From the NCBI GenBank assembly GCA_003510435.1, contig DOMK01000020.1, positions 59,523-123,522 on the forward strand: a stretch of DNA of 64,000 nucleotides. The letters are read 5' to 3'. Below the pieces are notes generated by a model. It had not been told where the DNA came from. It saw nothing but the letters and a program-made list of their open reading frames with translations, and made no database searches. The translations under genes and the position numbers were made by a program. Numbering within the stretch: the stretch's first letter is position 1; each line of letters starts with the position of its first letter. The DNA comes from Candidatus Magasanikiibacteriota bacterium (GTDB lineage: Bacteria; Patescibacteriota; Patescibacteriia; Magasanikbacterales; UBA922). Below are positions 3,951 through 30,900 of the stretch, one piece after another.

Positions 3951-6062
3951 ATGATTGATTTTCAAAAAGAATTAAATTCAGAACAACTCAAAGTAGTACA
4001 AGACGGCAACGGCCCATGTTTAGTTTTGGCTGGAGCAGGAAGCGGAAAAACTAGAACAATTACTTATCGCGTGGCTTATTTATTAGAACAGGGTATAAAG
4101 TCAGAAAATATTTTACTAGTAACATTTACTAATAAAGCGGCGAGAGAGATGTTGGAAAGAGTGGAAAAATTAACAAGCAACCCACCCTCTGATCCCTCCC
4201 TTATAAAGGGAGGGAGGACTGTGTTACCGTGGGCGGGAACGTTTCACCATATTGGTTATAGATTATTAAAAAAGTACGCCACTTTAATTGGCCTGCCTGC
4301 GCAGGCAGGCTATAAAAATAATTTTTCTGTATTAGACAGTGAAGATAGTTTGGATTTAATTAAACTTTGTCTGAAAAGCGAAGGGATTGATCGGAAAGAA
4401 AAAAGATTTCCTTCTCCAGCCGTAGTCCAGGCAATTATTTCTTATGCCCGAAATTCTGAGACTACGATTGCTGATGTTTTGGATTTGAAGTATGAACATT
4501 TTTTATATATCAGTGAAATAATTGTCAGGATTGCTGAAGATTATCAAAAAAGAAAATTGGCGGCCAATGTTATGGATTTTGATGATTTGCTCGTGAATTG
4601 GTATATGTTACTTATTAAGGAACAAGGAGTAAGGAATAAGTTAAGTGAACAATTTGAGTATATTTTAGTTGACGAATATCAAGACACAAATAAAATTCAA
4701 GCTTCAATAATTAATTTACTAGCTTCTAAGCATAATAATTTATTGGTCGTAGGTGATGATGCTCAGAGTATTTATTCTTTTCGGGCAGCTGATATTCAAA
4801 ATATTTTAGCGTTTGAAAAAAAATACAGTCAAGCAAAAATTTTTAAACTGGAAACCAATTATCGATCTACGCCAGATATTTTAAATTTGGCCAATGATAT
4901 TATTGCTAATAATTTAAAACAATATGAAAAGAATTTAAAAGCCATTAACACTAATTTTACCAAGCCAGAATTGATTGCCTTTGCTAGCCAAGCCGAAGAA
5001 GCTCAATTTATTGTTCAGAGAATCAAAGAATTGGAAAGTGAAGGAATAGACCTAAATAAAATTGCCGTGTTATTTCGCGCGGCTTATCATTCCCAGGCTT
5101 TGGAAATGGAATTGGTGAAGCGAGGGATTGATTATGATTATCGCGGGGGAGTAAGATTTTTTGATCGGGCCCATGTCAAAGATGTTCTAGCCTATTTGCG
5201 GATTATAAATAATATTGCCGACGAGATAGCTTGGCGTCGAGTGCTTAATATGCAGATTGGAATTGGGCCAGCGAATGCGGATAAAATAATTGAAGGGATA
5301 CGAAATACGAAAAATTACGAAATTACGAACTACGAAAATATTTTTGATGGGATTGGCGCGCAATTGCCAGCCAAAGCGCAGGTGGGGTGGAATGATTTTT
5401 TACAAATCTATTCCGCCGTCGCTAAAGCTATGGCGGATAAAGAAAATATAGGAGATTTGATTTTATCACTATTGGATTCAAAATATGTAGAATATATAGA
5501 AAATGAATATCCAGATTATCGTGAACGTTTGGAAGATATAAAACAATTAGCACAATTTGCGAAAAATGAAACAGAGCTGGATAAATTTTTGGCTGAAGCT
5601 ACACTACAAGATAGTTTTAGGAATCCCGCACTTCAAATCAACTCCACATTAGAAAGTAGAAGGGGGAAGTTAATTTTATCTACGATTCATCAAGCAAAAG
5701 GACTTGAATGGGAAGCAGTGTTTGTATTGGGTTTGTCGGCCGGACAATTTCCGAATGATAGAGCTTTGCGTGAGCGTGATGGTGTAGAAGAAGAAAGGCG
5801 TTTGTTTTATGTAGCAGTCACTCGCGCTAAAAAATATTTATATCTTACATATTCATTTGGTGGTGGGTGGGGAGATTCTTTGGCTGGACCAAGTATGTTT
5901 ATTGATGAACTTAATAAAAAATTAGTGTCAGCTGAAGGTATGGGTGGTGGAAGTGTATTTGAAGATTTAGATAACGAAGCAGAATATATTGATGAAGATT
6001 CTCAAATTATAGATAGTAAAAAGTTTCCTGGGAGTTTTTTGAAAGATTTGGGTGAACTGTAA
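3951..6062 (+). CDS. uvrD: ATP-dependent DNA helicase, UvrD/PcrA family
   Basis: It has the Walker A motif 'GAGSGKT' and 'VDEYQDTN' (motif II). The C-terminal 'TIHQAKGLEW...YVAVTRA' completes the helicase motifs. Confidence 0.92.
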   Translation: MIDFQKELNSEQLKVVQDGNGPCLVLAGAGSGKTRTITYRVAYLLEQGIKSENILLVTFTNKAAREMLERVEKLTSNPPSDPSLIKGGRTVLPWAGTFHHIGYRLLKKYATLIGLPAQAGYKNNFSVLDSEDSLDLIKLCLKSEGIDRKEKRFPSPAVVQAIISYARNSETTIADVLDLKYEHFLYISEIIVRIAEDYQKRKLAANVMDFDDLLVNWYMLLIKEQGVRNKLSEQFEYILVDEYQDTNKIQASIINLLASKHNNLLVVGDDAQSIYSFRAADIQNILAFEKKYSQAKIFKLETNYRSTPDILNLANDIIANNLKQYEKNLKAINTNFTKPELIAFASQAEEAQFIVQRIKELESEGIDLNKIAVLFRAAYHSQALEMELVKRGIDYDYRGGVRFFDRAHVKDVLAYLRIINNIADEIAWRRVLNMQIGIGPANADKIIEGIRNTKNYEITNYENIFDGIGAQLPAKAQVGWNDFLQIYSAVAKAMADKENIGDLILSLLDSKYVEYIENEYPDYRERLEDIKQLAQFAKNETELDKFLAEATLQDSFRNPALQINSTLESRRGKLILSTIHQAKGLEWEAVFVLGLSAGQFPNDRALRERDGVEEERRLFYVAVTRAKKYLYLTYSFGGGWGDSLAGPSMFIDELNKKLVSAEGMGGGSVFEDLDNEAEYIDEDSQIIDSKKFPGSFLKDLGEL

Positions 6063-6090
6063 ATTTTTGGCTTTCTTAAGCCAAAAATTC

Positions 6091-6119
6091 TTGACAAAAG
6101 TAATTTTTTGTGCTACTAT
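6091..6119 (+). promoter_or_regulatory. sigma70-type promoter: TTGACA, 17-bp spacer, TACTAT
   Basis: The -35 and -10 elements are near-consensus, 25 nt upstream of the ATG at 6145. Confidence 0.6.
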
Positions 6120-6144
6120 TCTCTATATTAATGACAAAATAAGT

Positions 6145-7926
6145 ATGGATGATTCCGAAATAGAACAATCACAATTAGTACAACCAGAGTCTGAGGAACT
6201 TTCTAACGGGACTAAGTCAGAAAGTCCTCTTTTAAGGTTAAAAAAAATTATTGCGAGTGAAAGTAAGCCTTTTGAGGCAATTAGTGTAGTAATTGACTTA
6301 ATGGAAACTACCAGTTTAGAATTGGCAGAAATGCCAGGGGCAGATCATGATGAATTTATCAAAATTGTTTTGCTTTATGCTCCCTATTTATATAGTTCGC
6401 TAGAAAATGAATATAATAATCTACCAGAGGAAATTAAAAAAACAGTTTTTAAAAGATTTGTGGAAAAGGTACCAGGCTCGGTGATGATTTATATGTGGGA
6501 AAAAATGCCTGAAGCAGAAAAAAAAGCTCTTGCTTTACATCTTTGGGAAAATCTTGTAGAAGAAGGTAATGATGATGAACATCTAATCAGAGAAGAATTT
6601 CCTGACTTATTTGTTGATTATCAACCAACAGAATTGGATTTAAATGAGTATAATAGGGATAGAGAAAAAATATTTAATTTTTCTGGAGATAAAATGCAGG
6701 AGGGCTATAGGTTTGTTGCTACCGATCAACAAAAATCAGAAGGGGAAGTAGGTTCGGCAGCTCGTAGTGGTTTAAAGAATTTTTTACATCAAGATTGGTG
6801 GAGCATCGAGGATTTTTCTTATGAAAGAATAAAAAGTAATTCGGAATTATTGAAAGACGATGATCCAGAAATGGCTGGAATTTATAAACATAGCATGCTT
6901 ACGTTGTCACATTTTTTGCATGAAAATGCTATACATGGAGAAGAAAGTCTAGAACAGCAATTTGCTAGATTTAGTCAGGAGATTAAACGACAGGATGAAT
7001 ATATGGGGAAGCATTTTCGAGTAAAGTTATCTGAGCCAGAAAAAAAGTTTTTAAAAGGATTTGATCCAGAAAATTTTAAATTTGCTTTACAGGCTATTGC
7101 CAACTTAGAAGAGCACGATGTCTTAGTTCCAGATATGGCCGATAAAATGCGAGCAATGGTGGCCTTTGCAGAAGAGTATTTTTTTTATAATCTCTCTCTT
7201 AAAGACAAAACTGATGAGGGTTCGCAAGTTCTTGCGGCTGCTCTTGGACCTGTGGTAGATTTAGTGGTAAAGGAAAAAAGTCAGGAACTTAACGCAAGTT
7301 ACAAAAAAAATATAACCACGGAATTAATACCAGATTTGGTAAAAAGATTCCCCAGTCTTAAGGGGTTACCTTTGGCCGAACGAATGGCCGGTGTAGAGGT
7401 TGGTTTTATTTCAACTTTGCGAAAAAATTTATCGGACTGGACTCATACATTGGGAGCTTATTCTCACTTAGGACGATCCATAAGTTTGCCGGTTTTTTCT
7501 GAACTTCCGGCATTTGTTTCTACTCATGAATCTATTCATGCTTTTTCTCATGGTCAATCCGATGACCTAGAAATGTTACCTAGGGACACGGAAAATACCA
7601 TGCTTAACAAAGTTTTGGTTGAAGGTATAACTCAGGCCATGACAGTGCGTTTAAATCCAGAATATGGTAAACAAGTAATGTATGCTGAGCATATGAGGGT
7701 ACTTCGTCGTTTGCGTGCTTGGGATGTGGATGAATCTTGGGGTATCCCTAAGCCGGCGAATATGCCAGAAGAAATTCCATTTGATTTTTTTGTGGATTTA
7801 ATGTGTGCCGATAAAAAAGATTTAAAAGAAGCTTTGCAAAGGGATTATAGGTTTTCAGATATTGAAGTGGAAAATTTTATTAAAGCCGGGCGTAAATTAG
7901 CAGAAACGATTAGCAGAAACGATTAA
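6145..7926 (+). CDS. hypothetical protein with an HExxH (HESIH) zinc-metalloprotease-like motif
   Basis: The start is chosen at 'MDDSEIEQ', downstream of the promoter. The 'VSTHESIHAFSHG' motif is the only recognisable feature; there is no other recognisable family. Confidence 0.5.
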   Translation: MDDSEIEQSQLVQPESEELSNGTKSESPLLRLKKIIASESKPFEAISVVIDLMETTSLELAEMPGADHDEFIKIVLLYAPYLYSSLENEYNNLPEEIKKTVFKRFVEKVPGSVMIYMWEKMPEAEKKALALHLWENLVEEGNDDEHLIREEFPDLFVDYQPTELDLNEYNRDREKIFNFSGDKMQEGYRFVATDQQKSEGEVGSAARSGLKNFLHQDWWSIEDFSYERIKSNSELLKDDDPEMAGIYKHSMLTLSHFLHENAIHGEESLEQQFARFSQEIKRQDEYMGKHFRVKLSEPEKKFLKGFDPENFKFALQAIANLEEHDVLVPDMADKMRAMVAFAEEYFFYNLSLKDKTDEGSQVLAAALGPVVDLVVKEKSQELNASYKKNITTELIPDLVKRFPSLKGLPLAERMAGVEVGFISTLRKNLSDWTHTLGAYSHLGRSISLPVFSELPAFVSTHESIHAFSHGQSDDLEMLPRDTENTMLNKVLVEGITQAMTVRLNPEYGKQVMYAEHMRVLRRLRAWDVDESWGIPKPANMPEEIPFDFFVDLMCADKKDLKEALQRDYRFSDIEVENFIKAGRKLAETISRND

Positions 7927-10191: not shown

Positions 10192-10265
10192 GGACCCGTA
10201 GCTCAGTTGGTTAGAGCGCTACATTGACATTGTAGAGGTCAGAAGTTCAACTCTTCTCGGGTCTA
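10192..10265 (+). tRNA. tRNA-Val (anticodon GAC)
   Basis: It folds as a cloverleaf: GGACCCG acceptor, GCTC/GAGC D-stem, anticodon loop TTGACAT, T-loop TTCAACT. CCA is not encoded. Confidence 0.85.
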
Positions 10266-10351: not shown

Positions 10352-10428
10352 GGGCAATTAGCTCAGTTGGCTAGAGCGCAACACTGATAATGTTGAGGTC
10401 CCAGGTTCGATTCCTGGATTGCCCACCA
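10352..10428 (+). tRNA. tRNA-Ile (anticodon GAT), CCA encoded
   Basis: It has acceptor GGGCAAT/ATTGCCC, anticodon loop CTGATAA and T-loop TTCGATT, and ends ACCA. Confidence 0.85.
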
Positions 10429-10618: not shown

Positions 10619-11266
10619 ATGATACCTAACACTGTTGAAGAGCAGACAGAGGAACAAGAAAAAATTGAATCCTTACCAGAAAAAGAAGAAGTGGTAAGCG
10701 AAGTAGAAAAAGGTTTTTTGGCCAAGACTAGCCTTTTCTTTTTGGAATTAATCAAGATTGTTATTTTGGCGGCGATTACGATTGGCCTGGTACGTTATTT
10801 TTTGTTCAAACCATTTTATGTAAAAGGTCAATCAATGGAACCAAATTTTTATGAAAGTGATTACCTTATTATAGATGAATTATCTTATCGTTTTCGTGAA
10901 CCCGAGCGGGGGGAGGTTGTGGTTTTTCGCGCTCCGGTTGATAAAAAAGAATTTTATCTAAAACGAATCTTAGGTTTACCAGGAGAGAGAGTGAAAGTTG
11001 GTGAGGGAAAAGTGGTTGTTTATAATGATAATTACCCACAAGGAATTTTGGTAGAAGAAAATTATTTAACCGAAACTACGCCTGGTTCTACTATTACTAC
11101 TCTTGGTTCTGATCAATATTTTGTCATGGGTGACAATCGTGATGCTAGCTATGATTCTCGTCGGTTTGGACCAATTGAAAAAACAGATTTTGTTGGTCGA
11201 GCTTGGGTAAGAGGTTGGCCATTTAGTCGCTTGAGTGCGTTTGAAGTCCCAAAATATAATTTTTAA
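10619..11266 (+). CDS. lepB: signal peptidase I
   Basis: It has 'GQSMEPNF' (catalytic Ser), 'LKRILGLPGE' and 'YFVMGDNRDASYDSR' (GDNR box). Confidence 0.9.
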   Translation: MIPNTVEEQTEEQEKIESLPEKEEVVSEVEKGFLAKTSLFFLELIKIVILAAITIGLVRYFLFKPFYVKGQSMEPNFYESDYLIIDELSYRFREPERGEVVVFRAPVDKKEFYLKRILGLPGERVKVGEGKVVVYNDNYPQGILVEENYLTETTPGSTITTLGSDQYFVMGDNRDASYDSRRFGPIEKTDFVGRAWVRGWPFSRLSAFEVPKYNF

Positions 11267-13675: not shown

Positions 13676-15904
13676 TTGTCCCTGGTTTCCATGCTGACTA
13701 GGACTGACAAAAAATTAAATTGGTTGAAAAAGACTACCACACTGTTTGCGGTTATTTTTGTGGTAGTTTTTTTGTTTTATCCAGTAGCCAATTCATTGGC
13801 AGCTGATCCTGTTTTTCAAGGACCGCAAGAACAGACTGATATCTATGGTTTACAGCCAGTAGCTGATACGATTGCTCTTACCCAGATGGATATCAGACTG
13901 GTAATTGCCCGAATTATAAGAGCAGTTTTGGGTTTATTGGGAATAATTGCCATTTGTATTGTACTTTATGCTGGCTTTATTATAATGACATCTGGTGGCA
14001 ATGAAGAAAAAGTAACTTATGGCAAGAGAATACTAATTAATGGTGTAATTGGTCTTATTATTATTTTGTCAGCTTTTGCGATTGTAAGTTTTGTGATAAA
14101 TGCTTTAGCTAAAATCTATGGCCTTAATATGGGTGGTAGAGTTAGTCGTACGCCAATCATTAGAACTTTTGATGGTAGTGGTGCCCTAGGTAGAGTGGTA
14201 AAAGATCATTATCCATTCCGTGATCAAAAAGATGTAGCAAGAAATACGAGCATCGTCGTGACTTTTGCTCAGCCAATATCTCCAGCTAGTGTGATTATAA
14301 ATAGTAATAATACTTGTTGGCGAGATGACGGTAGTAGTGAACCATTAAAAATAGTTGGTGGCGGAACCGGTTGTCTAAAAGTAGACAATGTGGCTGTACC
14401 ATATTATGGTGATTGTTTTACACCAGATGGTCAGGTATTTAATCAAAATACTGATTGTGATACTTTGGTAACTTCCTCAGTGCAAATATATGAAACATTG
14501 AAAGGGGAATTAGATCCTATTCCAGTGATTGAAGCCGTAGCTCTGGCTAGTTATGAAGATGGGGCACAAAAAAATGTTTATTCTTTAGTTTTCAAACCAA
14601 TTAATTTCTTGGGTAGTGACACTACTAATATAAGTTATACAGTTGTTTTGTCTGATAATATAATGAAGAAACCAATAGCTGGTGATGATGAAATAAGTGT
14701 TTTTGATGGTTATTTGGAAAATTATTATGAATGGTTGTTTGAAACTGGGACAGAATTTGATTTTGATCCACCATATGTAGAAAGGGTTTATCCTTCCTCT
14801 GATCCTAATAAACCAGGTTATCGCAATTCTGTTTTACAAATTTATTTTAATGAACCCATTGACCCCACTGTGGCTCAAGGATATTTTAGCTCCACTAGCA
14901 TTTTTAATAATATAGTGGTGGATAGTTCATCTACCTTGGATATAAAAGGTGAGTGGAAATTATCCAATGGTTATACTATAGCCGAATTTTTATCAGCCGA
15001 TGAATGCGGACTAAATAGTTGTGGTGAAATTATGTTTTGTTTGCCAGTAGGTTGTCCTGAAGAAGATGAAACGTGTAGTGAATCATATGAGGTTTTGGCG
15101 AGAACGGCTGAATTACTCAATAATCCTGATGTACCATTTGGTGCACGATTGTTTACTGGTATATATGATTTGGCTGGCAATGCTTTGAATGGTAACGAAG
15201 ACACTGAAACTGTCCGAACCGCTGAAGGTCAACCAACTAGCACTGTGGCTAATGAAATTAGAAATGATGATGAAGCACCAGACAATTATTGGTGGAATTT
15301 TTTAATTGGTAATAAAAAGGATAAGAGTGCGCCATATATAGAGTATATTACCCCGAGTATTGATCAGGGTAATATTAGTGAATTAGCTCTGGTCAATATT
15401 AGATTCAGTGAATTGATGTGGGCTAGAACTGTGCGTGATTATGTTGGTTTGGATGAATATGAAGCCAACCATTGTTATCAAATAAAAGGTAATGATGTTT
15501 GTTTGAAAGATTTATGGTTTGCTTCTAGGATAACGGTTTCTAGTACCAGTGGAGAAGAAAAGACTATTATAGATGTAAACCATCGTGAATTTGGGCCAAA
15601 TGATACTGATCTTTATTATTTTCCCAAGATTTTTAGCCAGATAAAAGATGCTAATCAGAATTGTTTTTATCCAGGAAGAGGGCCAGGATTGAATGAAGAT
15701 AGTGAGACTACAGAATGTAATGTGGTTTATGATAAGGACGGAATAATGTTGAGTCAGACTGGTTGTGTGGCTGATATGCCAAATTCTGATGCTACGCGCG
15801 ATACTGGTTGTATGACCACTTATCCAGTATCAACTACGGTGGGTAATATTCCAGAGTGTATTAATGAAATAAAAAATAATATAGTTAGCCCAATGAGTGA
15901 ATAA
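13676..15904 (+). CDS. large secreted protein with an N-terminal VirB2/TrbC-like (T4SS pilin-like) two-TM module and a Cys-rich extracellular region
   Basis: A signal peptide is followed by 'IRLVIARIIRAVLGLLGIIAICIVLYAGFIIMTSGGNEEKVTYGKRILINGVIGLIIILSAFAIVSFVINALA'. This module is paralogous to the N-terminus of the next gene. Confidence 0.6.
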   Translation: MSLVSMLTRTDKKLNWLKKTTTLFAVIFVVVFLFYPVANSLAADPVFQGPQEQTDIYGLQPVADTIALTQMDIRLVIARIIRAVLGLLGIIAICIVLYAGFIIMTSGGNEEKVTYGKRILINGVIGLIIILSAFAIVSFVINALAKIYGLNMGGRVSRTPIIRTFDGSGALGRVVKDHYPFRDQKDVARNTSIVVTFAQPISPASVIINSNNTCWRDDGSSEPLKIVGGGTGCLKVDNVAVPYYGDCFTPDGQVFNQNTDCDTLVTSSVQIYETLKGELDPIPVIEAVALASYEDGAQKNVYSLVFKPINFLGSDTTNISYTVVLSDNIMKKPIAGDDEISVFDGYLENYYEWLFETGTEFDFDPPYVERVYPSSDPNKPGYRNSVLQIYFNEPIDPTVAQGYFSSTSIFNNIVVDSSSTLDIKGEWKLSNGYTIAEFLSADECGLNSCGEIMFCLPVGCPEEDETCSESYEVLARTAELLNNPDVPFGARLFTGIYDLAGNALNGNEDTETVRTAEGQPTSTVANEIRNDDEAPDNYWWNFLIGNKKDKSAPYIEYITPSIDQGNISELALVNIRFSELMWARTVRDYVGLDEYEANHCYQIKGNDVCLKDLWFASRITVSSTSGEEKTIIDVNHREFGPNDTDLYYFPKIFSQIKDANQNCFYPGRGPGLNEDSETTECNVVYDKDGIMLSQTGCVADMPNSDATRDTGCMTTYPVSTTVGNIPECINEIKNNIVSPMSE

Positions 15905-15907
15905 AAT

Positions 15908-18900
15908 ATGTTTAATTTTAAGAAAAAATTAATTTTTATATTATTTTCTCTAATTATAGTGATGGGTACTTTTGTTTTTGTTTCCAATGTTTTTGCCCAA
16001 TCAGCTGATGTTTTTGGTTTGAAGCCGGTAGGTGATTCGATTGCCCTCGGTGGACAGGATATAAGAATAACAATTGCAAAGATAATAAGAGTGATTCTAG
16101 GTTTATTGGGTATAATCGCCATGGGAATTGTTTTGTATGGCGGTTTTGTATATATGACATCTGGTGGTAATGAAGAAAAGGTTGCTCAGGCAAAAAAAAT
16201 TATTATTAATGGCATAATTGGCTTAGCGATTATTCTTTCAGCCTTTTCTATTGCGAGTTTTATTATTAATAGTTTGGCTGGGGCAACTATAAATAAAAAT
16301 CCTCCTAATGACAACTTGTCGTGTTTGGATTCTACTTATCGTGAGGAACATCCTGCTAAGTGTGATAAATGTATTAAATGGCCACAGACATGTTGTGAAG
16401 AGTATTTTATTGTCAAAAGTATTACACCTGTCACAAATGCCACCAACATGAATAATGTGGTGATTAGGGTTTTGTTTAGCAAAAAATTGAGTAGTGACTA
16501 TACGAGTAATACAAAGTTACGTGAAGTCGTTCAGGTGTTTGGTTCATCAGGAACTAATATTACTAATAAATTTGATTTTGTTTTAAAAGATGGCTTGTTG
16601 GTAGAATTGACACCAAATAATAATTCTGGTCTGAAATGTGAAGGTACGACTAATTGTTTAGCTGATGGCAATTACACTATAAAAGTAAATGAAAATACCA
16701 AATCTATAAATAATGAACCTCTTACTACGGATGTGGAATTTTGTGGTGAGTATCCTTTGGAAGGAAAATTTATTACTAATCACGAAACTAAGGGTTTTTA
16801 TTTTGATGGGGTAAATGATTATATTGAAGTGACTAGTACAGACATGAATATTACGACGGGTGATTTTACTGTGGCAGTTTGGGCAAAATCAGTTAAGTTT
16901 ATACAAAGATCCTCAATAATTAATAAAGGAGCATATTTTCCAGAAAAAAATATTGGTTATAATATTGGTTTTATAAGTAATCCCAAAAATGTTTGGTTTG
17001 TAGTGAGTGACGGTCCAGCCTCTAGTCCGGCTAACACTCTATCTAGAACATATGATACTTCTACGAGTAGTCGAAGTGGAGTTTTTGATTGGGCACATTT
17101 TGTTCTAGTTAAAACTGGTAATCAAATAAAAGCTTACACAAATGGCGTTTTGGTTGGTACAGCTGGTGGGGTAGATAGTTCAATTTCAAATGTATCTAAT
17201 TTTTTAATTGGGAAAAGTATTGTTAGTAATAAATTTTTTAATGGTTATATTGATGATGTTTATTTTTATAGAAGAGCTTTGAATGATACAGAAATAACTA
17301 GTCTTTTTCAAAAAAATGCTAGTATCCCTAGAGATACAGCTTTGGTAGGTGAATGGAAGTTTGATAATGTCGTGGGTAATAAAGTAATAGATAGTTCTGG
17401 TAGAAATAACAATGCCGTAGTCTATGGCGCGACTTGGGTAGAGGGTACCTCAGGTGGCACATCAGCCCAGACGACTTATAATTTAGGTTTTGATGGAATA
17501 GATGATTATATAGAAGTGTCAGATAATAGTGTTTTAGATTTGACAGATGCCATCTCGGTTTCTACTTGGGTAAAATCTCGTGCTGAAGGGTATATCGTGG
17601 CCAAGGATCCCTATGTGTGGCAGACAGTGGCAAACAATTATATTCCTTTTATGGGGCCTTGGAATTGGGTACAAAATGAAATGCAAGGTACCAGATTTAC
17701 TCCAAAAAAAGATGGTACTGTTGATAAATTATGCAAATATTCAAAGGGCAACCAGACTTTAAAATTGTGGGATAGTTCATTTAATGAATTAGCTTCAGTC
17801 CAATCTTTAAATACTGTTGATGAGTGGAAATGTGAGACAATAACTTCACCTGTTTTAGTTCAAGCAAATAAACTTTATTATGTAGGCATTTGTTGTAATG
17901 ATGGTATCAATTGTATTCGTAGGGCAGAGTCTGGTAATGTGGTTTACCCACTATTAGTTGGAGATGTTGAAATGGGGCGGTCGTTTTCTGTTTCTAATAA
18001 TTCTGGCTGTGCCCTGTCTGGTTTACCAGGGACTTCAGCTAATGCTTTTTTTGTAGATATTAATTTTGTGCCAAGTGGTAGTACACCAGTGGCAGAAATT
18101 TGTAATGATAATCTTGATAATGATGGCGATGGTAAGCTTGACTGTTCAGATCCAGATTGTGTTGGTAATTCGGCCTGTCAAACTACAAAAACCAATGTGC
18201 CCTTTGCCCTTAGTACAATTGGTAAAGGACAATTTTTAATTAAAAAAGATGGGGTAGACCATGTGGTAAATTCCTCAGTAAATATAAATGATAATTTATG
18301 GCATCATGTGGTGGCTACTTATAGTAAGAGCGGTAGCGGTGAAATGAAAATTTATGTGGATGGAAATTTGACTGGCACGGCGACTGGTTATACTGGTGGT
18401 ATGCCCACAAACAATGACCCATTATTTATTGGTCGATCTTATGATCCAGCCCAAACGACAAATTATTTTAAAGGTAATATCCAAGATCTAAAAATTTACA
18501 ATCGAGCCTTGTCTTTGTCTGAGGTTGGTCAACTTTTTAATAAACAAACAGTTCCAACCGGTTTGATTTCCAGTTGGGACTTTAATCTTGGTAGTGGCAC
18601 CAGTCTTTCTGATAATGAAAGAAGAAATATTGGTACATTTAAAGGTGGGGTACAGTGGTCATCAGTGACAATTCCGGCTTCTGGCCCAAGTTCTAATGTT
18701 GGGGTCAAAGATTCTCAATCACCAGAAGTTAGTAGTTTAGCTGTAGACAACCTTATTACTACTAGTACTTATCGTTTGCGAGGGGGCAAGGATTATGATC
18801 TTACTACCCAGATTGCTGATGAAAGTGGTTTTGGTTATTTGCATATAGAAGTAGAAAAAACTAAAGATCATGAAGGCAAAATTGTTTCTCCAGCGCAAAA

Positions 18901-21900
18901 AATGATGGCCACTGATTATTATTATGGTCCGTCAGTAGCTCAGGGTTCAAATGCGCCATTTTCTGCACCATACCAATTTAGTCATCCTTTAAATTTTAAA
19001 AATAGTAGTACCACTATTTATACAGCTGGTCTTTATACTGTAAGAGTAACGGTTTATGATATTGATAATAATAGAACTATAAAGACATTAATAGTTAGTT
19101 TAATTCCAGAAAGTTGTACCAATGGTCAATTGGATCCAGGTGAAGTGACTTCTGATGAGGGTGGAGTATGTGGTCGTGGAGAAGGTGAAAGTTGTGATAC
19201 AGATAATGATTGTAGTTATAGTCTTAGATGTATTGATCACTTGGGTGATGGAAATAAAGTCTGTACAGCTTATCCAATGATAGAAGGAGTTAGTCCAATG
19301 ATGTCTGGAGCTGGCGGTAATTGGATCACTGTCTATGGTAAGCATTTTGGTGAAGAATCGGGTAATATTCAATTTGCGGTTGGTAATCACCCTACTACTT
19401 CTACGGGAAGCTGGGCAAATGCCAATTTGGCGGATTGTGAACAAGATGTGTGGCATGATAAGTGGGTGATTGTGCAGGTGCCAGAAGATAATACTACTTT
19501 ACCTCTATATAGTACTAGTACAATTAAATTGCAAACCACCTCAACTATTCAAGTTGGTGGTGTGTATATAAAACCTTATGATACAACGGTAGATGATTGG
19601 GGATTGGACAGTGGCCAACCTGGTTTATTTACAAAAAATACTGAAGTTTATCCTGGTTTGTGTAGTGTTGGTATAATCAATCCAATTATTGACCCAGAGA
19701 CAGAACTAGTTGTTGTAGAAGCTGGTGAAAATCGTGGTTTGCCTGGAGATGAAATTGAGGCGATTGGGCAAAATCTTGGTGATGATAGAAATGGGGGAAA
19801 ATTATTATTTGGTGGCGACAATGTAAATACCCAAGTTTCAGATTGGAATGATACTAACATTTTAAGCGTAGTGCCAGAATTAACAGCCGAGTGGTATGGA
19901 GTTTATGCTCAGATGGGTTCAACTGGAGGATCGAAAAAAAGTAATGCAGTGCCGTTTCATGTTTTGGATGAGGGCTTTTTGCGAGCACCAATTATAGAAA
20001 GTATTGATCCACCAACAACTACACCAGGCAGTTATATTACAATTTATGGTAAAAGATTTGGTAAACAAGTTGGTCAATATAAAGGCCGGGTATTTTTGTC
20101 AGTCTCTAAAACAGAAGCCAAAAATTGTTTGGATGGTACACCAGAGGTAGATAAATGTTTAGAATTATCTGATGCTGGTTTTCCACAAGAATGCAGTGAG
20201 ACTTGGTTTAATGATCACGTAATTGTTGGCATTCCAAAAATTATTCCCCAGATATTTAGAGATAATTATCAAAATACTTTATTGACTCAAGGTGAAGTGG
20301 CAACTGATCTTTTGTCTTCGGCTGGTTTGGGTAGTGAACATATAGTTAATTCGTATCATAATTATGTAAAAATAAATGATTCTGAAACGTTTTTATTAAT
20401 GGGTAGAAGTTTAGAAGTTGATGTTGTTTTGGATGATTTAGCGACAAGTACAGGTCAATTTTCTAAAAATTCAACACAATGGAAAAAAAATAGGTATGTG
20501 TTGATCAAATCACCTACTAGTACTGATACGTATGCTGATTTTAAAATGAGAATAGAACACACAGTGGACGTGGCAGATGGTGCTGTAAAAAGAACATTGT
20601 ATGTTGAAAGTGATACCGTAAGAGTTTATAGCATGATTCAACCTAATTATTCAGTGTCTTTTCCTCTTCAAAATGATGTAAAAAGATTTAAATTTAAAAT
20701 AAAACCAGGTTATGATGGTGCTGATAAAAAACTTTTTAGTTATTTATCCACCTCCACTGATCCAAATGTGGAACCGGGTACCCCTTCTTTAGCTAATACT
20801 AGTGATAGATTATTTACAGCATTGGTTAGTAGTACCAAACCATTATTTTTAGGTTACAATACTGTCATTGGTTCCAATAATGTCTATACTTTATTTGGTA
20901 TAATAAAAAGTTTAAAAATAAATAATGATGCTTTGGTGGATGATCCCAATGCTTATTTCCGTCCCTACATTATATTAGAGAGCAGTGCCGAAGAACCTCT
21001 AAATACTTCTGGCAATGATCAATATACCATTATTAATGGTGATCCAGCACCAGGGATTTGTCTTATTAGTCCAGCTAGTGGCCCAGCCCCTTTGCCTGTC
21101 GGAGAATTTTTAACACTCTATGGTAATAATTTTCCTTTAGATCCTTTTGTTTATTTTAGAGGTCCAAATTCTGATCCAAATAATGTTAGTAGTACTGGTG
21201 GTTGGTTGGAAGCAGAAGACGTTAGTTTAATTCCTTTGGCTGGTGGTGGACAGATGATAACCACTACTATTCCTTATAGTGAAACTATTTTATTAGGTGA
21301 AGGTCCACACACTGTAAAAGTTAAGAAAAATACTACCCCAATTGCTGTAAGTAATGGTTTGGATTATTTGGTGATAGATTGTACCAAAGCTAGTAAAGAA
21401 GAATCCACTAGAATGGAATCTCGTTATCAATGTTGTACAGCTGGTAAAGATCTTGGTAAATGGAAATTGGATAGTAGTGTTTGCGATGGTCAAGTACGCG
21501 AGGCTGGCTATGTATGGCGGTTTACGACTGGTATTATAAAATTACCTCCTTATGTAGTAGAACAGTGTGATCAAGAACATTGGAATGATCCAGGTGTGAC
21601 TTTGAAATTTCCTTCGCCAGTGCCATGGATAGGTTGGAAGAGTGGAGACTCAGTTTGTCTCAATGCCTCAGTGGCAGTTTATTTTAGCCGGTCAATGGAT
21701 GAAAATACTATAAATTCTAGTACAGTAAAAATGTACAAGTGTACGGCCACAGAAGACAATACGACTGGTTGTACAACTGCAATTCCTCTGGAAGATGATG
21801 AAATTATTCTTAGTTCACAAGTTTTGTATATTAGACAAAATCCACCTTCTAGTGATTTAACTTCTAGCACCTGGTATCAAGTTAAATTGTCCAAGGACAT

Positions 21901-24900
21901 TACTTCTTATGAAGAACAACAGCAAGTTGGAACAACCACTATAATAAGAGAACTATTAAAACCAACCGAACCTTGTGATAACGGTGATTATGCTTATTGT
22001 TATTATTTCAAAACTGGTACTGGTCAGTGTAATTTAGAGGGTGTCTATATCAATCCTTTGTATCATAGAGCGCGGTTGCTTGGAATTGTCCAAAGTCCTT
22101 TCTTCCCCTATATAATGACTTTGGAAGGTATAAATAATCCACCTCATCCTTATTATTATTTATTATGGGGCAAGGCTAATCAGCCGTGTACTATCATAAA
22201 TGTGGATGGTTTGGGTTGGGTTTGGGATTCTATAGATGATACCAAAGCTGTGTCAATAAATGCACCAAAGTCAGGTCAATACACAGACAGTAGAGCTAAA
22301 ATTAGAGCTTTACAAAATACTGCTCCAGGCACAGTTGATATTACAGCTGAAGCTACAACTACAGTGACAATTGATATTGATGGACAGACTGTGACAAGTA
22401 CAGAACACTTTTTGGCCTCTACAACTTTAAAGGTAGATTTGTATGATCCACAAGTGATTGAATGGTGGCCAGATTGTATTAATTCTTGTGCCAACGGTAC
22501 TGTTGGGGTACGGTTTAATATGCCGATGGTGACTAATACTTATCCTGGTGGTTTAATTTTAGAAAAATGTAGTGATGAATTTTGTGATACGATTGTTAAT
22601 AGTATTCCGGTGACGACCACAATCGCCAGTATAGAGATTTATGAAGTAGCACCAATAAATAATTTATTACCAAATACCTGGTATCGGGTGACGGTGACAG
22701 GGACTATTTTTTCTATTGGCAGAATTGACGCCAGTGGTAATGTGTTAGCCAATGGTGATCCTTTGATTCCGCATGTTTGGCGGTTTAGAACAAAGATGGT
22801 TGATGAAATTTGTATTTTGGACAAAGCTAGTTTATATCCAGATCCTTTTGTGGCGCATTTTATAGATGAAAAAACTATATATAATGTTATGCCGATTAGT
22901 GCACCAAACCAGTGCAATCCAAATGGACAAAAATTAAATCCTTGGAATTATGGTTGGCAATGGGACGTGGTGGCAACTTCAACCTTAACTTCAAATTACG
23001 ACGTGGCTACCTCAACTCATTTTGAAGAAGCCGGTACTTTTAAACCTTATTGTGATTTTGCTTGTTTATTGGCTGGTAGTAATTATCGCGACGATGTTCG
23101 TCAGCCATTTATTTGTGGCAATGGTGTTATAGAGCCAGGTGAAGATTGTGATATTGCCACTACGACCACATCGACTGATTCCAATCCTGCCCAGGTTCAT
23201 GAAATTGCTGGACAGAGTTGTAATTTGTCTTGTCTGCGTCCAGGTAATCCTGATATTGGTACTGGCACAAATCAATGTGGCAATGGTACTACAGAATATA
23301 TTTATGGCGAAGAATGCGATACAGCCAAACCAAGTGAAATAAATTATTGTAAGCCAAATTGTACTTGGGAAGGCTCAAGTCAATTGGTACAAAATCGGTC
23401 TAACTTGGTATCCCAGTGTGGTAGTGGTAGTGTGACCAAGGGTGAAGATTGTGATTTGGGTATTACTAGTACTACCATCCCAGAAGGAAAAATTGGTTGC
23501 TCAGACAAATGTCTTCACACCGGTACAATTTTGTCACAAATGTGGTGTGATGTTAGTACCAATACTATGCAGGTGGGGACTACCACTCGGTCAATAAATG
23601 AAATTGGCGAATGTAATCATGCGGCCAGTATTTGTGGTAATAGTGTTTTGGAATCAGGTGAAGAGTGTGAATTTGTTTATAATAGTAATGTTTGGCAACA
23701 AGAAAGAATTAAAATTTTTGGTGAGGCGGGTGATTTCCAAATTGTGACCAGTACAGTCGTGACATCAACCAAGAATATTTGTTCAAATAAATGTTTATTA
23801 GAAAATATTTGTGGACAGAATTATATTGACTTGAACACCGCCTTTACTACGAGTTCTTTCCGTTGTGCTTATCCGGGTGAAGGTTGTAGAAATGATTGTC
23901 ATATTCGTGGAGCGTCTGTGGCTTATACCTTACCTTCTATGTGTGGAGACACTGTAGATGGCGTAGGTGAATATCCAATGTGTGAGTTAAGGACTTCTAC
24001 AGCTTTGGGACAAAAGCCTTTACAAATAGTGACTGCGATTGGTGAAGGAGCAGTTGATCCAGAAACCAATTCACAAAATGCGCGGATCAAAGCTACAGCG
24101 ATAAATTATAAGAATAGTGATGGGAGTGTAGAAACTTTAATTATTCCAGTTGACGGCTTTGGTACTTATGGTTTGTATTGTGGTTATACAGAATATACTA
24201 CGGCCGATGCTAATGGTAATTATAATGATTGTCCAGGTGATAGTGTCATGGTTGGGGCTGGTTCTGATATGTGTTGTCGACCACGTCTGTATCGTCAAGA
24301 AGCTTACCCAGCCGATGGGACTGGCCTGCTTGGTGCTAGTGAAGAAGGGGTTTGTCGCAATACTTATATTGAGGCCAAATTTAGGGGTGAGATTGATCCA
24401 GATACTATTGAGAATAATGCCTACATCGTTAGTGGTCATGCTAGCGGGCACACTTGTTTGTCTACAGAAATTCTTTTTTCTAATCAAATTACTTCTACTT
24501 TGTTGGCTTATGAACCAGGTGAACAAATACCAGGTGGTTTTTGGTCCAAATTGTGGTATCACATAAAAACTTTCTTTGTTCGTTTATTTGCTGGCAATGT
24601 TTATGCTAGTCTTTTTACTGTATCAGATCCAGTTTGGTGTGCTTCTCCATTAAAATACCAAACAAATTATGAATATAATCAAGTGGGTGATGCCAAAGCT
24701 TCTACTACCACTATTTCTTTTTATATAAATAATTTACTTGAACCAGAAACTAATTATGTTGTATTTTTACGTGGAGGAGCCGAAGGCATAAAGGACACTA
24801 ATGGAGTTGGTATTAGAGGAGCGGATGATATTGATTCTGGGGCTGGTACTCTATATCAATTAAAAGATTCTTGGTTATTCAAAACTAACACTGAAATTTG

Positions 24901-27900
24901 TACGATTGATAATTTGTTAGTTTTGCCTAGTGACTATTTATTCCAAACACCAAATACTACTAGTACTTTTCATGTTTTGGCTTTGACTGATACCTTACAA
25001 AAAATAGTCCCAACAAATGAATATAATTGGGAATGGGTTTGGGGTCCACAAAATAATGAACTATTTTCTATTCCAGCGGTGGGCTATCCAGGTGATTCAG
25101 ACTATGCAGTTTTGGCTTCCACCAATTTGGAAGGTCATGTTTATGCTGTAGTGCAGGCTGAGATAGAAGATCTTACTAGACAAGCACCAGTTGATGGATT
25201 AGATCCATTACCAGTGGATCCAGATTTTGGTACGCAAAATCATACGACAGCTTATTTCAATCTTACCTCTAGTTTTTGTGAAAATCCTTGGCCACCAGTG
25301 GTTGGTGGTGTTTGGACACCTTTTGAAGATTCAGATTATAATTTTAGTTTCAATTATTGTGCTGATGCTGGTTTGACTGATAATACAACTGATGATTTGC
25401 CATATTTAGATGTGGTAGAAATGGAAAACAAAGTGTGTAATGGTAGTAATATTAGTTGTAATACTGACGCTGATTGTCCAGGTTTATTATATACTGATCA
25501 AAATTGGAATGCGCGTTTTTATGCTGTACCAGATCCAGATAAGACTGGTTTTTGTGGTTTTGTCGTTCCTGTTTCTTCTCCAGATTCACAAATCTATATT
25601 GGTCAAACTGGACCAGTGGCTTGTGCTGGTGATGCTATGTGTAAAAGTAATAGTACTTTGGTGACTTGGGCTAATGCTAAAATTGTTAGCTTACCAGCAG
25701 GGTACAATCTTTCAGTAGCCAATCATTTGCTTTGTGCTGGTATAGCCAATTCTTCACCAGCCCAGTGTGTGGTAGATCCTAATAAAGAAGTATTAAAAAA
25801 ATATTTATTTGTCGCTGATAAAAATGATGATGCGATCGGTCTCCAGATTTTACGCAATCCAGATAGATTGTCGGCTTTGAATTGGTTTAGAGACAAATTT
25901 AAACTAGCCACTACCAATCCACAAGTCATAGAGCTAAATGGTTATGATGCGATTACTGATGGAGAAAATTATTATGTCAATGCTTTGAATGCTGATACAG
26001 CCAATCATCATGTTTATAATAATATTTATCAGATTAGTTTGAACAAAGGCATGCAAGCCAATACTAAAAATGTTTTTGATCAGATTTTTAATAATTTTAA
26101 ATTTAATGCTAATTTATTAGATGTTCGCATGTGTGGTTATGCTGATGGGTCAATTGATTTGAGTCGAAATACAAAATGTAGTAGTGATCTGGATTGTTAT
26201 AATGCTGTAAATGTTGGTCATTGTGGAATAGGTAGTGGCGACTGGAATGGAGTGAATTTTGTTGGTAGCAATTTAAATAGTCTTTCTGTTTTATCAGATA
26301 ATGAACTCTGGGTTTCTGATTATAATGGCAAACTGTATTATACTAATAATGGTGGAAATACTTGGATAAATGAGGCTACTTCAACAGCTATTTTATCTGG
26401 GAAATATTTTAAAAAGGTTGATTTTGTGGATAGTAGCCATGGTTGGGCAGTGGACAATAATGGAATTGTTTTTAAGAAAACCGTAGATACTTGGCAAAAT
26501 TTAGGTTCAGTGACTAGTACGTCTGGTTTTGAATATAGAGATGCATTTTTTATTAATACTAATAATGCTTGGGTGGTGGCTGGTAAATCTGGTAATGCTA
26601 AAAGTAGAGTGTTTAAAACTTTAGATGGTGGTAGTGTTTGGCAAGAAGAACCTGTGTATTATTATCATTCCAATGGTGTAACTTTGCTGGACGCAACCAC
26701 CTTTGGGCCTAGTAAAATATTCTTCACCCCAGATAGTCAAGGGTGGGGTATTGGTTCGAGAATGGCCGGATCTGGTACTGATGTTTATGGTATAATTTTT
26801 AAGAGAGATAATGATCAAAATCGTTGGTTGGTAGTTTCTACAACCAACTACCTAGCTCTTGTAAACCAATTTAATGACATATATTTTGCCAATGACAGTA
26901 TTGGCTTTATAGTAGGTAATAATGGTTTGGTTTTAAAAACAACTGATGCTGGTAATAACTGGCTAGATATTAGCACTAGTAGTTTTAGTGATATTAATTT
27001 AACAGCAGTTCATTTTTATGATGCCAATAAAGGTGTAATGGTTGGTAATAAGACTGGTGATACAAAAGGTTATGTTTTAAAAACTCTAGATGGCGGAGCG
27101 ACTTGGGAAAAATATCATTTACCAGTCAATACTGGTGAAATGAGGGATGCCTTTATTAATAGCAGTACCAGCATGACTGTTTTAGGTGCTAATTATATTT
27201 TAAACAATGACACGGAAGAACGAATTTGTCGAAGTGATAGTGATTGCTTCAATGGCAATACTTGTTATGGTTATGAAGAAAAATTTTGCGTGGCACCAAA
27301 AGCCAAATTATTAAACGATTGGACTAGAGTACGCGATGTGGCTGACATTCAAAAAGGGATTGAAGCTTATAATTTTGTCAAAGGCTATTATCCAGATCTG
27401 AAAAAAATTCATACGTCACCATCAGATCCAAATGAAGCGCAATTTTCTTCGTATTTGCCTGGCTATGTGACCTCACGCTGGTCATCTTGGGGTGCTTTTG
27501 GTTCTAAGGTGCTTGGTTTGTCTGGGATTGCCTCTGATCCATTAAATATTTGGCAAAATTGTCCAGCGAATTTTGAACAGACTACTTGTTGGGATGAAAC
27601 TAATCTTAGTTATTATTGTGCCTATCCGTCCAGTGTTTATGAATATAAGTTTGTGTCAACTAGTCCCGGTTATTCTCTCAATATTCCCTTTGAATATCTG
27701 ACAGTTGTTGATAATGGTGAAGACGGAGATATTCTGGGTGATATGTTGCCAAATACCTCTACCATTCAGACTAATCGGGCTTGTACACCAGGCCAGATAG
27801 AGAGTCTGCTTGGTGATCATTGTGGAGATGGTATGGTCACTCCTAGCAACAATGAACAGTGTGATCCAGTTGGGTCTCTTGGTGCTTTGGTTGTTAGTAG

Positions 27901-30900
27901 CACCCACAATCGTTATTCTGCACGACAAAAATGCAATTTACAGTGCCAATGGGAATTAGGAGAGTGGGCTGTGGGTGATGTGTGTGGTAATGGTGATACA
28001 GAAGGTAATGAGGCTTGTGATGATGGAGATAAAAATGGTACCTATGGTATGTGTGCTGGCCCAAATAGTAGATATAAAACTAATATTGTGGATGCAAATG
28101 GTAATGTTATCCATACTATTAATAGTCTAGTCGGAGAGTGTCAGGGTTTACACCAAGAATATTGTGGTGATAATGTTTTACAAAGTCAGGAATTGTGTGA
28201 AAAGAAAGATGATGTACTGGTATCTTACAGTTTAAATTTGGGGACATGTGGCAAAGACGCTAGTAGGAGTTGTTCTTTAGATGATCAATGTTTTAGTGCT
28301 TTGTCTTTTGATGGTAATAACGATTCGCTGTCTTCAGAACAAGACATTCCGCTTGGTAATGGTCCATTTACTATGGAATTTTGGTTTAAACAAAGTGAAG
28401 TTTTGAGAACAGATTCAGAGCCGATTGTAGCTTTTCATAGAGGTAATAGTCCAGAAGATCCTGATAATATGAAGGCTTATTTTGCTCTAGAAATTGGTAG
28501 AAATAAAAATATTGGTTTTGGGCAAGCTGGTTTTATGAATAGAACTGGTAAATATTCTTATGTAAAGACTAATGATAATGTTTTTTATTTAAACAATTGG
28601 TTTCATATTGCTTTAATGAGTGATGGAACTGGTAAAGTTAGTATTTTTGTTAATGGAGTAGAATTGGCTTCAGTAAGTAATTTTGTCACTAGCGATAATT
28701 TGGCAGTAGATAAAATATATATTGGCAATCCACCTTATTTTTTACAATATGGTTTGACCGGAGTAGTGGATGAATTTAAAATTCATAATCAAGTGATAGA
28801 TCCTGCTCTTTTTAGAACTTATTATGATAATACAGATCTTATTAGTGAGTATCTCGATTCAGCGGTTGGCTGGCATCTTGATGAAGGTATGGGTAGTGAT
28901 ATTTATAATTATAAAAATAGTACTTTTGACGCTTCAATAAGTGGGGCAAAATGGGTGACGCCAGATATTTTTACTGATACTTGTGGTAATATTTCAAAAA
29001 AATATACTTATTTGCGTTATGGCGACCAGTGGAGAGGTGTGGCTGTTTCAGCCACTCAATGCAGTAGTGGCAGTCCGGCTGTAAAAGCTATTTGTAAAAT
29101 TCTTAGAACGGCAATTCATCTTGGTGTAACATCTTTGGTAAATGGCGGTGATTATAAAGATAATTATTGTAGTAATAGTCTAGATAATTTGGTTTTGTGT
29201 AAACAAAGTAGTGATTGTGTTGTGCCGACCACCACTGCATATATATTTACAGAAAATGAATTTTTGAATAGTGATTTGACTGGTATGATGACGTCTTTTA
29301 CCAATGCCACTACCTCTCTGGGCACTTGTGCTCCTTTCCCAACCGGAAAGAAATATGGCGCACCATATAATTTTTATAAAGATTTATCTTGCGCTTGGAA
29401 CTGTCAAAACTATGGTTCATACTGTGGTGATGGTATGAGAGATGCTGGCTATGGTGAGGAGTGTGATGATACCAATACTGTAAATGATGATGGTTGCAAT
29501 ATTTATTGTAAAACACAAGGTACTGTTCCACCTACCACTACTATTGTTACGGAGCCAGAGTCTGATTTGACTTGTGGAAATAATATAAAAGATAAAGGCG
29601 AAGAATGTGACGAGGGGGTTAATAATGGTATTGAATGTAGTATTTCTTATGGCAAGGGTTGTACTTATTGTGCATCTGATTGTAAAAAGAAAATTGTTAA
29701 AGATCCAATTAATTTTTGTGGTAATGGACAGATTGATTTAATAGGTTATGACAAGACTGCTAATGAACCAATATATGAAGCTTGTGATGTAAAAAATGGT
29801 GTTGTCCAGACTAGTAGTAGTGGCCATATTGTAGATGCTTATTGTTACAATTCACAAATGCCTGGCAAAAATAAATTTTTCGCTGGTAGTTTTAGTTGTG
29901 AAAGTAGTTGTACCAAGTTAGTAGATAAGTGTTTTGATTGTGGGGCATTTAATAGAAAATTAGAGGACAATGGTACTGCTGTGCCTAGATTTGACATTTT
30001 TAGTGTTTTGACACCGACTACGACTGCTAAAATTACTTTTAATAATCACACTGATGATAGAAAATTGAAGTTTGGTTATTTTGTCCCTGGTACCAATGTG
30101 TCTAGTAATGGTACCTCTACTCTAAATTATTCTCATGATTTAGATGTTAGTTCTACCAATCCTATTAGTTTGGGAGATGTTAATATAGAAACCAATCCAA
30201 TTTGTAATAATTATTCTAATCCTACGCCACTAGCCACCAGTTCTTATTATTGGTTTGAAGGTGATAATACTTATTCAAGTGCTGCAAATTTTGCACTTAT
30301 TCCTAATAATCGTTTATTCTATTACCCAGTTAATAATGAAGCTGATATAGTAAAAAATCAGTATATAGTAGCACCTAATCCACCCGAAGGTAGTTTCCGG
30401 GTGGTGGTGAAGTGGTCTGATAAATATGTTCCAGATACGGAAGTCAAATTTCAAGGTATAGTTTATAATTCAGGTTTGGACGAAAAGCAGACTATAAACT
30501 ATGTGGATGCCAATTTATCAACAAGTAAAGATTTGGCTGATATTACTGGTAGCGCTAATAGGGTGTGTAATAGTAATAATTATGAAGTAGATTGTATTGG
30601 TAAACAATATGATGGGGTCTATGTTCATGGGCAGGGTGATTTTAATGGTACTCATGTTCAGTCATTCACCATTGATACCTATGCTCGCGGTTTTGATACC
30701 AAGAATTATGCTTTTGTAGTTGACCAGTGGGGTAAAGTAAAACGTATTTCAGGTCAGACAGATTCTAGCCCAATTTCGCCATATATGAATAGTGATTTGA
30801 CAGTAGAAGTCTATGAACACAAGAGCGATGGTGGCAATATTTATCATCCCGATCATACGTATACAATCAAGAATGAAACCACTGCTGATCCTAAGGCTGA

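Follow-up and report, generated by a model that had tools for sequence, protein, structure and literature searches.

A predicted VirB2-like pilin module shared by two adjacent genes for large putative surface proteins of Magasanikbacteria

We analysed a 64,000-nucleotide (nt) stretch of DNA from a Candidatus Magasanikiibacteriota bacterium (assembly GCA_003510435.1, contig DOMK01000020.1, positions 59,523 to 123,522 of the forward strand), here called the window, in which two adjacent genes, A and B, encode large proteins that begin with the same module. Protein B has 5275 amino acids (aa); protein A has 737 aa when read from the ATG at 13691, the choice of public gene callers, or 742 aa from the alternative TTG at 13676. 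Sequence comparisons place the module in a family that is itself known and that explains the finding, the VirB2-like pilins of type IV secretion systems (T4SS; Pfam family PF18895). We consider it probable that A and B are pilin-anchored surface proteins displayed for attachment to a host cell, and that the membrane hairpin of the module likely does more than anchor them.

The shared module and its family

The N-terminal regions of the two proteins were aligned by BLASTP over residues 14-216 of A and 2-187 of B (E=1e-28, composition-adjusted statistics), and a core spanning A 55-147 and B 34-126 runs ungapped, with 62/93 residues identical and 68% nucleotide identity. The near position-by-position match that the initial annotation had described between the N-termini of the 742-aa and 5275-aa proteins is therefore upheld. 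The aligned core includes the motifs FGLxPV, DIR, IIRxxLGLLGIIA and MTSGGNEEKV, and charged and polar positions are kept between the modules (D..DIR, MTSGGNEEKV, KK..NG). When each module was compared by phmmer with the six-frame translation of the whole window, it matched only its counterpart (E about 5e-35), every further stop-to-stop segment in the six frames having E>0.2. The window contains exactly two copies of the module, and their likeness lies far beyond chance or signal-peptide hydrophobicity. The latter had been named at the outset as the explanation that would undo the observation, and the module is indeed 60-70% hydrophobic, with three hydrophobic stretches. That generic signal-peptide or transmembrane hydrophobicity is the sole cause has, however, a negligible probability given the composition-adjusted E-value, the conservation of charged and polar positions and the family-specific Pfam matches above threshold, and no other hydrophobic open reading frame (ORF) of the window did better than E 0.2.

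Protein A matches PF18895 (T4SS_pilin) with 31.7 bits at residues 76-140 and protein B with 43.4 bits at residues 55-119 (38.3 bits in a scan of a 2500-aa piece), both above the gathering cut-off of 26.6. The TrbC/VirB2 family PF04956 gave 16.1 and 17.9 bits for A and B, under its cut-off of 27.9, and some homologues carry both families in precomputed annotation. Scores against NF045849 of NCBIfam (Mbov_0395 family pilin-like conjugal transfer protein) were 32.3 bits for A and 38.2 bits for B, below the 40-bit cut-off; the name is nonetheless used by NCBI for some homologues of A. A search with residues 1-130 of B among 5.8 billion proteins returned 282 matches, the best 120 of which are all PF18895 proteins of 111-219 aa with 46-70% identity, from Magasanikbacteria, Uhrbacteria and other Patescibacteria. 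Since the nearest relatives of the B module are free-standing pilins (50-65% identity), the module appears to be an entire pilin of the free-standing type and not a fragment, comprising a signal peptide, an acidic N-segment and a two-helix membrane hairpin. In this respect the second suggestion of the initial annotation, a dedicated secretion or anchoring cassette, was essentially right.

The two genes and their parts, with the evidence for each, are listed below; structural models were made with AlphaFold2 (AF2), and Ig-like stands for immunoglobulin-like.

13691-15904, + strand: gene A, 737 aa when started at the ATG, a predicted pilin-anchored protein that bears tandem Ig-like domains (ORF list, translation)
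13691-13801, + strand: predicted signal peptide of A, M6-A42 in 742-aa numbering (sequence, hydropathy, AF2 helix followed by a disordered stretch)
13802-14119, + strand: predicted pilin module of A, acidic mature N-segment and helix-loop-helix membrane hairpin (PF18895, hydropathy, AF2)
14120-15901, + strand: predicted ectodomain of A, a linker and then tandem beta-sandwich (Ig-like/Big_5) domains, 16 cysteines (PF13205, AF2, Foldseek)
15908-31735, + strand: gene B, giant predicted pilin-anchored protein, 5275 aa (ORF list, translation, Pfam)
15908-15997, + strand: predicted signal peptide of B, M1-A30 (sequence, hydropathy, AF2 helix 4-28)
15998-16291, + strand: predicted pilin module of B, N-segment 31-51 and hairpin helices 52-83 and 89-128 (PF18895, AF2)
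16292-31732, + strand: predicted ectodomain of B, about 5,150 aa, cysteine-rich (150 Cys), with lectin-like and Ig-like domains (Pfam, hydropathy)

Hydropathy gives both proteins a signal-peptide core and two transmembrane-length segments, which in A lie at 72-109 and 116-150, and hydropathy and AF2 models alike describe a signal peptide and, after it, a pair of hydrophobic helices with a short polar loop between them. In the model of B 1-135 (63 homologues) a signal helix at 4-28 is followed by a disordered stretch and by the hairpin, whose predicted local distance difference test (pLDDT) score exceeds 90 and whose loop occupies residues 84-88. The same pattern of signal helix and hairpin is seen in the full-length model of A (pLDDT 84.7, predicted template-modelling score 0.77), where the hairpin helices span 68-99 and 105-143 in 737-aa numbering with pLDDT of about 80-90. 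The hairpin of A corresponds to approximately 13892-14119, and both hairpins have MTSGGNEEKV as their loop. The signal peptide of A combines a K-rich n-region with a hydrophobic core and a signal peptidase I site predicted between VANSLA and AD, and cleavage of B is predicted between SNVFA and QS, in both cases from sequence and hydropathy. Neither protein matched the N-methylation motif of type IV pilus (T4P) pilins in Pfam (N_methyl, PF07963); the N-termini are of the classical Sec/signal peptidase I type.

The sizes of A (737/742 aa) and B (5275 aa) set them apart from free-standing PF18895 pilins, which measure about 110-220 aa. The two genes do resemble the tandem VirB2 arrays of Patescibacteria in being adjacent, separated by 3 nt and both PF18895-positive. 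The ectodomain of A is beta-rich from 170 to 700 in the full-length model, and Foldseek related it to bacterial Ig-like domains of LdtMt2 (E 7.5e-5) and to cadherin ectodomains; the Pfam matches in A are PF18895 T4SS_pilin and PF13205 Big_5. In B, Pfam recognised T4SS_pilin at 55-119, DUF4082 at 594-671, Laminin_G_3 in 2 stretches (best 762-873), TIG at 1277-1351, Big_5 at about 2192-2295 and BNR-type repeats at about 3649-3738. Full-length hydropathy revealed no further hydrophobic segment in B beyond the module, and no C-terminal anchor. A protein identical to A is on record (P0121, NCBI 'Candidatus Magasanikbacteria' DEB09_05745), from a metagenome-assembled genome of groundwater metagenomes. 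Scans for promoters and terminators around A-B gave background level only and add nothing on operon structure to the 3-nt spacing of the genes.

How much of the two proteins is homologous bears directly on the scenario first proposed, in which a gene was duplicated in tandem and one of the copies then expanded. The genes are adjacent on the same strand, B starting 3 nt past the stop codon of A, they have their N-terminal 130 residues in common, and Big_5-type Ig-like domains lie downstream in both. Yet a hidden Markov model (HMM) of the A family, built from about 150 proteins, aligns to residues 4-131 of B (E 1e-52) and finds nothing significant past residue 131 (best further domain, independent E-value 0.003, 1.8 bits), and BLASTP found no second significant A-B segment. 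The homology ends where the hairpin ends, therefore the pair did not arise by duplication of a whole gene and subsequent expansion. Moreover, A is close to 700 aa and B giant in all 34 loci described below, so that any expansion would predate the whole clade. We reject whole-gene duplication on the confinement of the A-family match to B 4-131, and regard it as improbable. What was duplicated appears from these comparisons to be the pilin module and not the gene, the ectodomains of A and B being to all appearance unrelated.

Distribution and evolution of the A-B pair

A scan of 185,579 species genomes gave eight loci, and a metagenome scan with a profile of the module added 80 more. The order S26 peptidase-HisRS-orf81-YqeY-A was present in 8/8 genome loci, with a large or giant B after A in 7/8 (the contig of locus L005 ends at A), and every A and B in these loci carries the module. 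When the window, the genome loci and about 26 metagenome loci are taken together, 34 loci have an A-like gene (450-900 aa after the module) followed directly by a giant B-like gene. The synteny S26 peptidase-HisRS-orf81-(YqeY)-A-B is kept down to 41-54% HisRS identity, and the downstream genes with thrombospondin type 3 (TSP3) repeats, YbeY, DAGK and FtsA are also shared in some loci. Orthologues of A are steady at about 700 aa, and complete orthologues of B have about 2,100-3,450 aa after the module. The sizes of B relatives were taken from the ORF structure of the fetched loci and not from a homologue search with B 1-330, which returned fragments and mid-sized pilin fusions only, neither giant proteins nor B itself.

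Occupation of the same housekeeping position in 34 loci argues that the duplication is ancient, and we read the A-B pair as an old, vertically inherited cassette of the core chromosome of Magasanikbacteria and their relatives. The initial proposal fares no better if understood as a recent duplication, since both genes and both modules sit at this one position in distantly related genomes.

At E<1e-30, a search of 1.84 billion cluster representatives assigns 602 of the clusters to the A family, and almost all of the listed homologues combine PF13205 with PF18895. Long passengers are a minority among module-bearing proteins: in a sample of 307 complete ORFs the number of residues after the module was <30 in 187, 30-100 in 57, 100-300 in 16, 300-1000 in 36 and >1000 in just 11, proportions that are indicative only, the sample having been picked by likeness to the B module.

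Some genomes have, besides the A-B pair, a separate array of 12-14 PF18895 genes. Two such arrays (L081 3404-9446 and L106 4248-9764) lie on the same contigs as pair loci L032 and L050, next to a gene for a solute-binding protein. Several array members have the hairpin at the C-terminus, after an N-terminal domain of 200-380 aa (in one case DUF4215), so that either end of the hairpin can take a passenger.

The modules of the pair were compared in 31 non-redundant pairs. Under a simple ancient duplication, the module of A is expected to be no closer to its own B than to the B of other genomes. Within a locus, the A and B modules share a mean identity of 64.2%, against 52.3% for A and B of different loci, 53.8% for A-A orthologues and 56.1% for B-B orthologues, and the within-locus excess was significant by permutation (p<=0.0002). 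For 17/31 A modules the best-matching B was the partner in the same locus. Synonymous codon identity at identical residues was likewise higher within loci (0.50) than between loci (0.39-0.40), GC-matched pairs included, a signal to which genome-specific codon usage may contribute. In a neighbour-joining tree, the A and B modules of loci L007 and L008 cluster together with 99% bootstrap support, and the ectodomains of these loci are orthologous to those of other genomes. The two contigs (CAZMEW010000008.1 and CAYMVY010000003.1) are titled 'uncultured Gammaproteobacteria', yet they have the A-B pair in synteny of the Magasanikbacteria type, and the label is probably wrong.

Because the identity of modules within a genome exceeds that of orthologous modules, these patterns indicate concerted evolution of the A and B modules within each genome. 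The source may be old or episodic gene conversion, co-evolution under shared constraint, or both. Recent duplication or recent conversion of the module in this genome is a different matter. It would account for the within-genome excess of identity and for the synonymous sharing (0.50 versus 0.40), but in the window A and B use different codons at 25/62 identical residues, they agree at 68% of nucleotides and share no identical DNA run of more than 14 nt. Across loci, the longest within-locus runs reach 14-26 nt, shorter than the 32 nt attained by unrelated between-locus pairs. Recent gene conversion was rejected for the window on its codon differences and short identical runs, and we hold a recent origin of the likeness to be very improbable.

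Different parts of the pair change at different rates. Mean pairwise identity in the A family is 58% in the hairpin, 42% in the ectodomain and 33% in the signal peptide. Compared with a close relative (locus L001), the flanking proteins are 85-100% identical, whereas identity drops to 42% for A and about 31% for B. At the DNA level the two remain 93-100% identical across orf81, YqeY and roughly the first 85 nt of A; identity then falls to 55-70%, with a sharp upstream breakpoint at about 13760, inside the signal peptide of A (about 10070 in L001). The downstream end of the divergent segment was not located, an exact look-up of the YbeY of the window having given only contigs of the same population. 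According to these comparisons, change in the A-B cassette, by divergence or by replacement, far outpaces that of its surroundings, a pattern expected of exposed surface proteins.

Genomic context

The pair lies in the gene order signal peptidase-HisRS-S21-like (81 aa)-YqeY-A-B...YbeY-FtsA/Z, and the other genes of the window are all housekeeping genes (TGT, UvrD, NDK, DAGK, NrdR, pyruvate kinase, PPDK, IF3, SmpB). Weak matches to NF045849, a model linked to mycoplasma conjugative elements, and to TrbC/VirB2 raise the question of whether the pair belongs to an integrated conjugative element and supplies pilins for DNA transfer. The housekeeping position is conserved across deep divergence, base composition is uniform over the window, and relaxase, integrase, VirB4 and coupling-protein families had no Pfam match among most window ORFs of 80 aa or more; relaxases are also rare in the phylum (PMC12102498). 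A conjugative-element context was rejected on the absence of these mobility families together with uniform composition and conserved position, and we judge it extremely improbable.

The signal peptidase gene (10619-11266) is found in synteny upstream of the pair in 29 metagenome loci. It was considered as a TraF-like peptidase of pilin maturation and rejected in that role: the TIGR02227 model gave 141.5 bits and the TraF model 37 against a cut-off of 100, matches that identify this S26 peptidase as an ordinary signal peptidase I.

Three small genes come directly after B. The first (31742-32155) encodes 137 aa, in which a transmembrane helix at the N-terminus is combined with TSP3 repeats of the bacterial, calcium-binding type. 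A 304-aa protein with a TSP3 repeat and one hydrophobic segment is encoded at 32359-33273, and a 389-aa single-pass protein without family match at 33381-34550. Relatives of the TSP3 genes also follow B in loci L040, L043, L054 and L093. The TSP3 genes downstream of B may be part of the same surface apparatus.

Other features are incidental to the pair. A second giant ORF (55231-63171, 2646 aa) has a calcineurin-like phosphoesterase domain at 265-479 and a charged, coiled-coil-like N-terminus without hydrophobic segment or signal peptide; its product is probably cytoplasmic and unrelated to A and B. A 624-aa ORF at 6052-7926 had no Pfam or NCBIfam match, and the segment 6066-7939 has no counterpart in L001/L015, the close relative, in which NDK comes immediately after UvrD; this marks the segment as a strain-variable insertion. 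An ordinary tmRNA lies next to smpB (50835-51237 and 51329-51778, both on the - strand), and three ordinary tRNA genes were found at 10192-10265, 10352-10425 and 49061-49134.

Membrane anchoring, docking and host attachment

Pilins of the VirB2/TraA type reside in the cytoplasmic membrane as a hairpin with both ends outside. If the module behaves in the same manner, A and B would be exported by Sec and then cut by signal peptidase I, and the hairpin would span the cytoplasmic membrane twice and retain the proteins there. With both of its ends outside, the C-terminal passenger would be extracellular, an Ig-like stalk of roughly 590 aa in A and a chain of lectin-like and Ig-like domains of roughly 5,150 aa in B, and would serve at the cell surface as a device for attaching to a host. 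Solved conjugative pili have the inter-helix loop turned towards the lumen (PMC12037004); the termini therefore point outwards, a geometry compatible with a C-terminal passenger. An adhesive role of B is probable, given the Ig-like folds in A, the LamG, TIG, Big_5 and BNR domains in B and the fast divergence of both.

The hairpin keeps the signature residues of free-standing pilins, is the best conserved part of the protein and co-evolves with that of the neighbouring gene, and for these reasons it is probably more than an anchor. The most likely further function is docking, in which the hairpin would join A to B, or would join the two to other pilin paralogues of the cell or to the assembly machinery. 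The proteins may also enter a T4SS pilus as rare adhesin-bearing subunits, at its tip or base. Work on other Patescibacteria supplies context: in Southlakia the pilin array and the T4SS are essential (PMC10633639, PMC12857230), and in Paceibacterales growing on methanogens the genes for T4SS-pilin proteins rank with the most highly expressed (PMC10936435).

The competing explanation to be weighed most carefully is that the pilin hairpin was co-opted as a plain membrane anchor, with no link to a T4SS or pilus, in a cell without sortase or lipoprotein anchoring. It agrees with the absence of T4SS genes from the window, with the housekeeping position of the pair on the core chromosome and with the lack of any other anchor in B. 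The domain is also joined to passengers of many sizes and at either protein end, as a general-purpose anchor would be. A plain anchor, on the other hand, needs neither 58% conservation, nor an invariant polar loop (MT.GGNEE), nor 50-65% identity to free-standing pilins, and it leaves the co-evolution of the two modules of one genome unexplained. We regard anchoring alone as possible but doubtful.

Returning to pilin-anchored proteins whose hairpin has a function beyond anchoring, several observations weigh against this interpretation. The topology and the cleavage of the signal peptides are deduced from hydropathy and from knowledge of the family. Foldseek comparison of the B 1-135 model with the PDB retrieved generic helical hairpins only (best E 0.28, for a very simple fold), and the sequence profile of the module had no match among PDB chains. 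The name 'pilin' for PF18895 is itself a prediction, no PF18895 filament being reported in the literature searched. None of VirB4, VirB6, TrsD and the coupling protein was found by Pfam among the annotated ORFs of the 64-kb window, and the free-standing pilin arrays of related genomes have no VirB4 within 10 kb. Finally, a passenger of 5,150 aa on every subunit could not be packed into a pilus, which leaves at most a minor or tip role. Note that Magasanikbacteria genomes related to that of the window are entered as VirB4-positive in Table S1 of PMC12102498, and that the same survey found pilin and virB4 in proximity in just 1135/1948 assemblies.

Comparison with known systems helps to place the pair. 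VirB2-like pilins have been catalogued in 1,948 Patescibacteria assemblies, with 441 arrays of 2-11 tandem genes whose members share at most 54% identity (PMC12102498). Such arrays, exemplified by the six-pilin array of Southlakia epibionticum ML1 and by TM7x, have in common with A and B the PF18895 family, the signal peptide with hairpin, the tandem paralogues and the phylum. They encode small proteins and often lie beside virB4, in contrast to A and B, which carry C-terminal passengers of 590 aa and 5,150 aa and have housekeeping genes for neighbours, no T4SS gene being found in the 64-kb window. The modules of A and B are also more alike (64-67% identity) than the maximum of 54% reported for array members. 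The canonical VirB2/TrbC/TraA pilins resemble the module in their signal peptide and hydrophobic helix-loop-helix, although the sequence match is weak (16-18 bits); they are 60-80 aa when mature and belong to diderm systems. Some of them are cyclised head-to-tail, which the C-terminal fusion in A and B excludes.

Modular T4P pilins with bulky C-terminal domains, such as PilB and PilC of Streptococcus sanguinis, are minor adhesin subunits of their filament. They belong to an unrelated family, in which a class III signal peptide is combined with N-methylation of the N-terminus and one N-terminal helix, and their likeness to A and B is one of mechanism only. PrgB-type adhesins of Gram-positive conjugation systems and the giant surface proteins of bacteria of the candidate phyla radiation (Vampirococcus, PMC8080830) are, as A and B are predicted to be, large multi-domain surface proteins with Ig-like or lectin-like domains and a presumed role in cell-cell contact. 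Sortase anchors PrgB-type proteins through an LPXTG motif at the C-terminus, whereas A and B have an N-terminal pilin hairpin. No PrgB-type adhesin was found in Patescibacteria (PMC12102498).

Within the literature searched, the coverage of which was limited, there was no mention of a pilin domain fused to giant ectodomains or of a conserved A-B pair. Relative to that literature, what is new is that a VirB2-like pilin carries very large passengers, an architecture already visible in public annotation, that this fusion is fixed as a two-gene core cassette across a whole order-level clade and that the modules undergo concerted evolution.

The proposal can be carried one step further, as a more speculative and rather unlikely extension, to 'modular T4SS pilins' in which VirB2-like subunits bearing a stalk (A) and a giant adhesin (B) would be drawn out of the membrane and assembled into the T4SS pilus of a monoderm episymbiont, as paired tip or base subunits.

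These considerations matter for the annotation and the biology of the phylum. Proteins counted as 'VirB2' in Patescibacteria span 110 to >5,000 residues, a warning to those who use the label. The pair offers testable handles in its best-conserved hairpin, in the co-evolving hairpins of each genome and in ectodomains that are replaced or diverge fast between close relatives. Patescibacteria depend on contact with host cells, in the single species in which it was tested their T4SS with VirB2-like pilins, an unusual one, proved essential, and no T4SS-linked adhesin has been identified in the phylum; the A-B pair, an Ig-like stalk and a multi-lectin giant each set on a pilin domain, is a concrete candidate for an attachment device. 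If the modular T4SS pilin proposal were true, A and B would be the adhesins for host recognition that have been missing from the Patescibacteria T4SS, with modules that co-evolve through contact in the filament and ectodomains that diverge fast as they track host surfaces.

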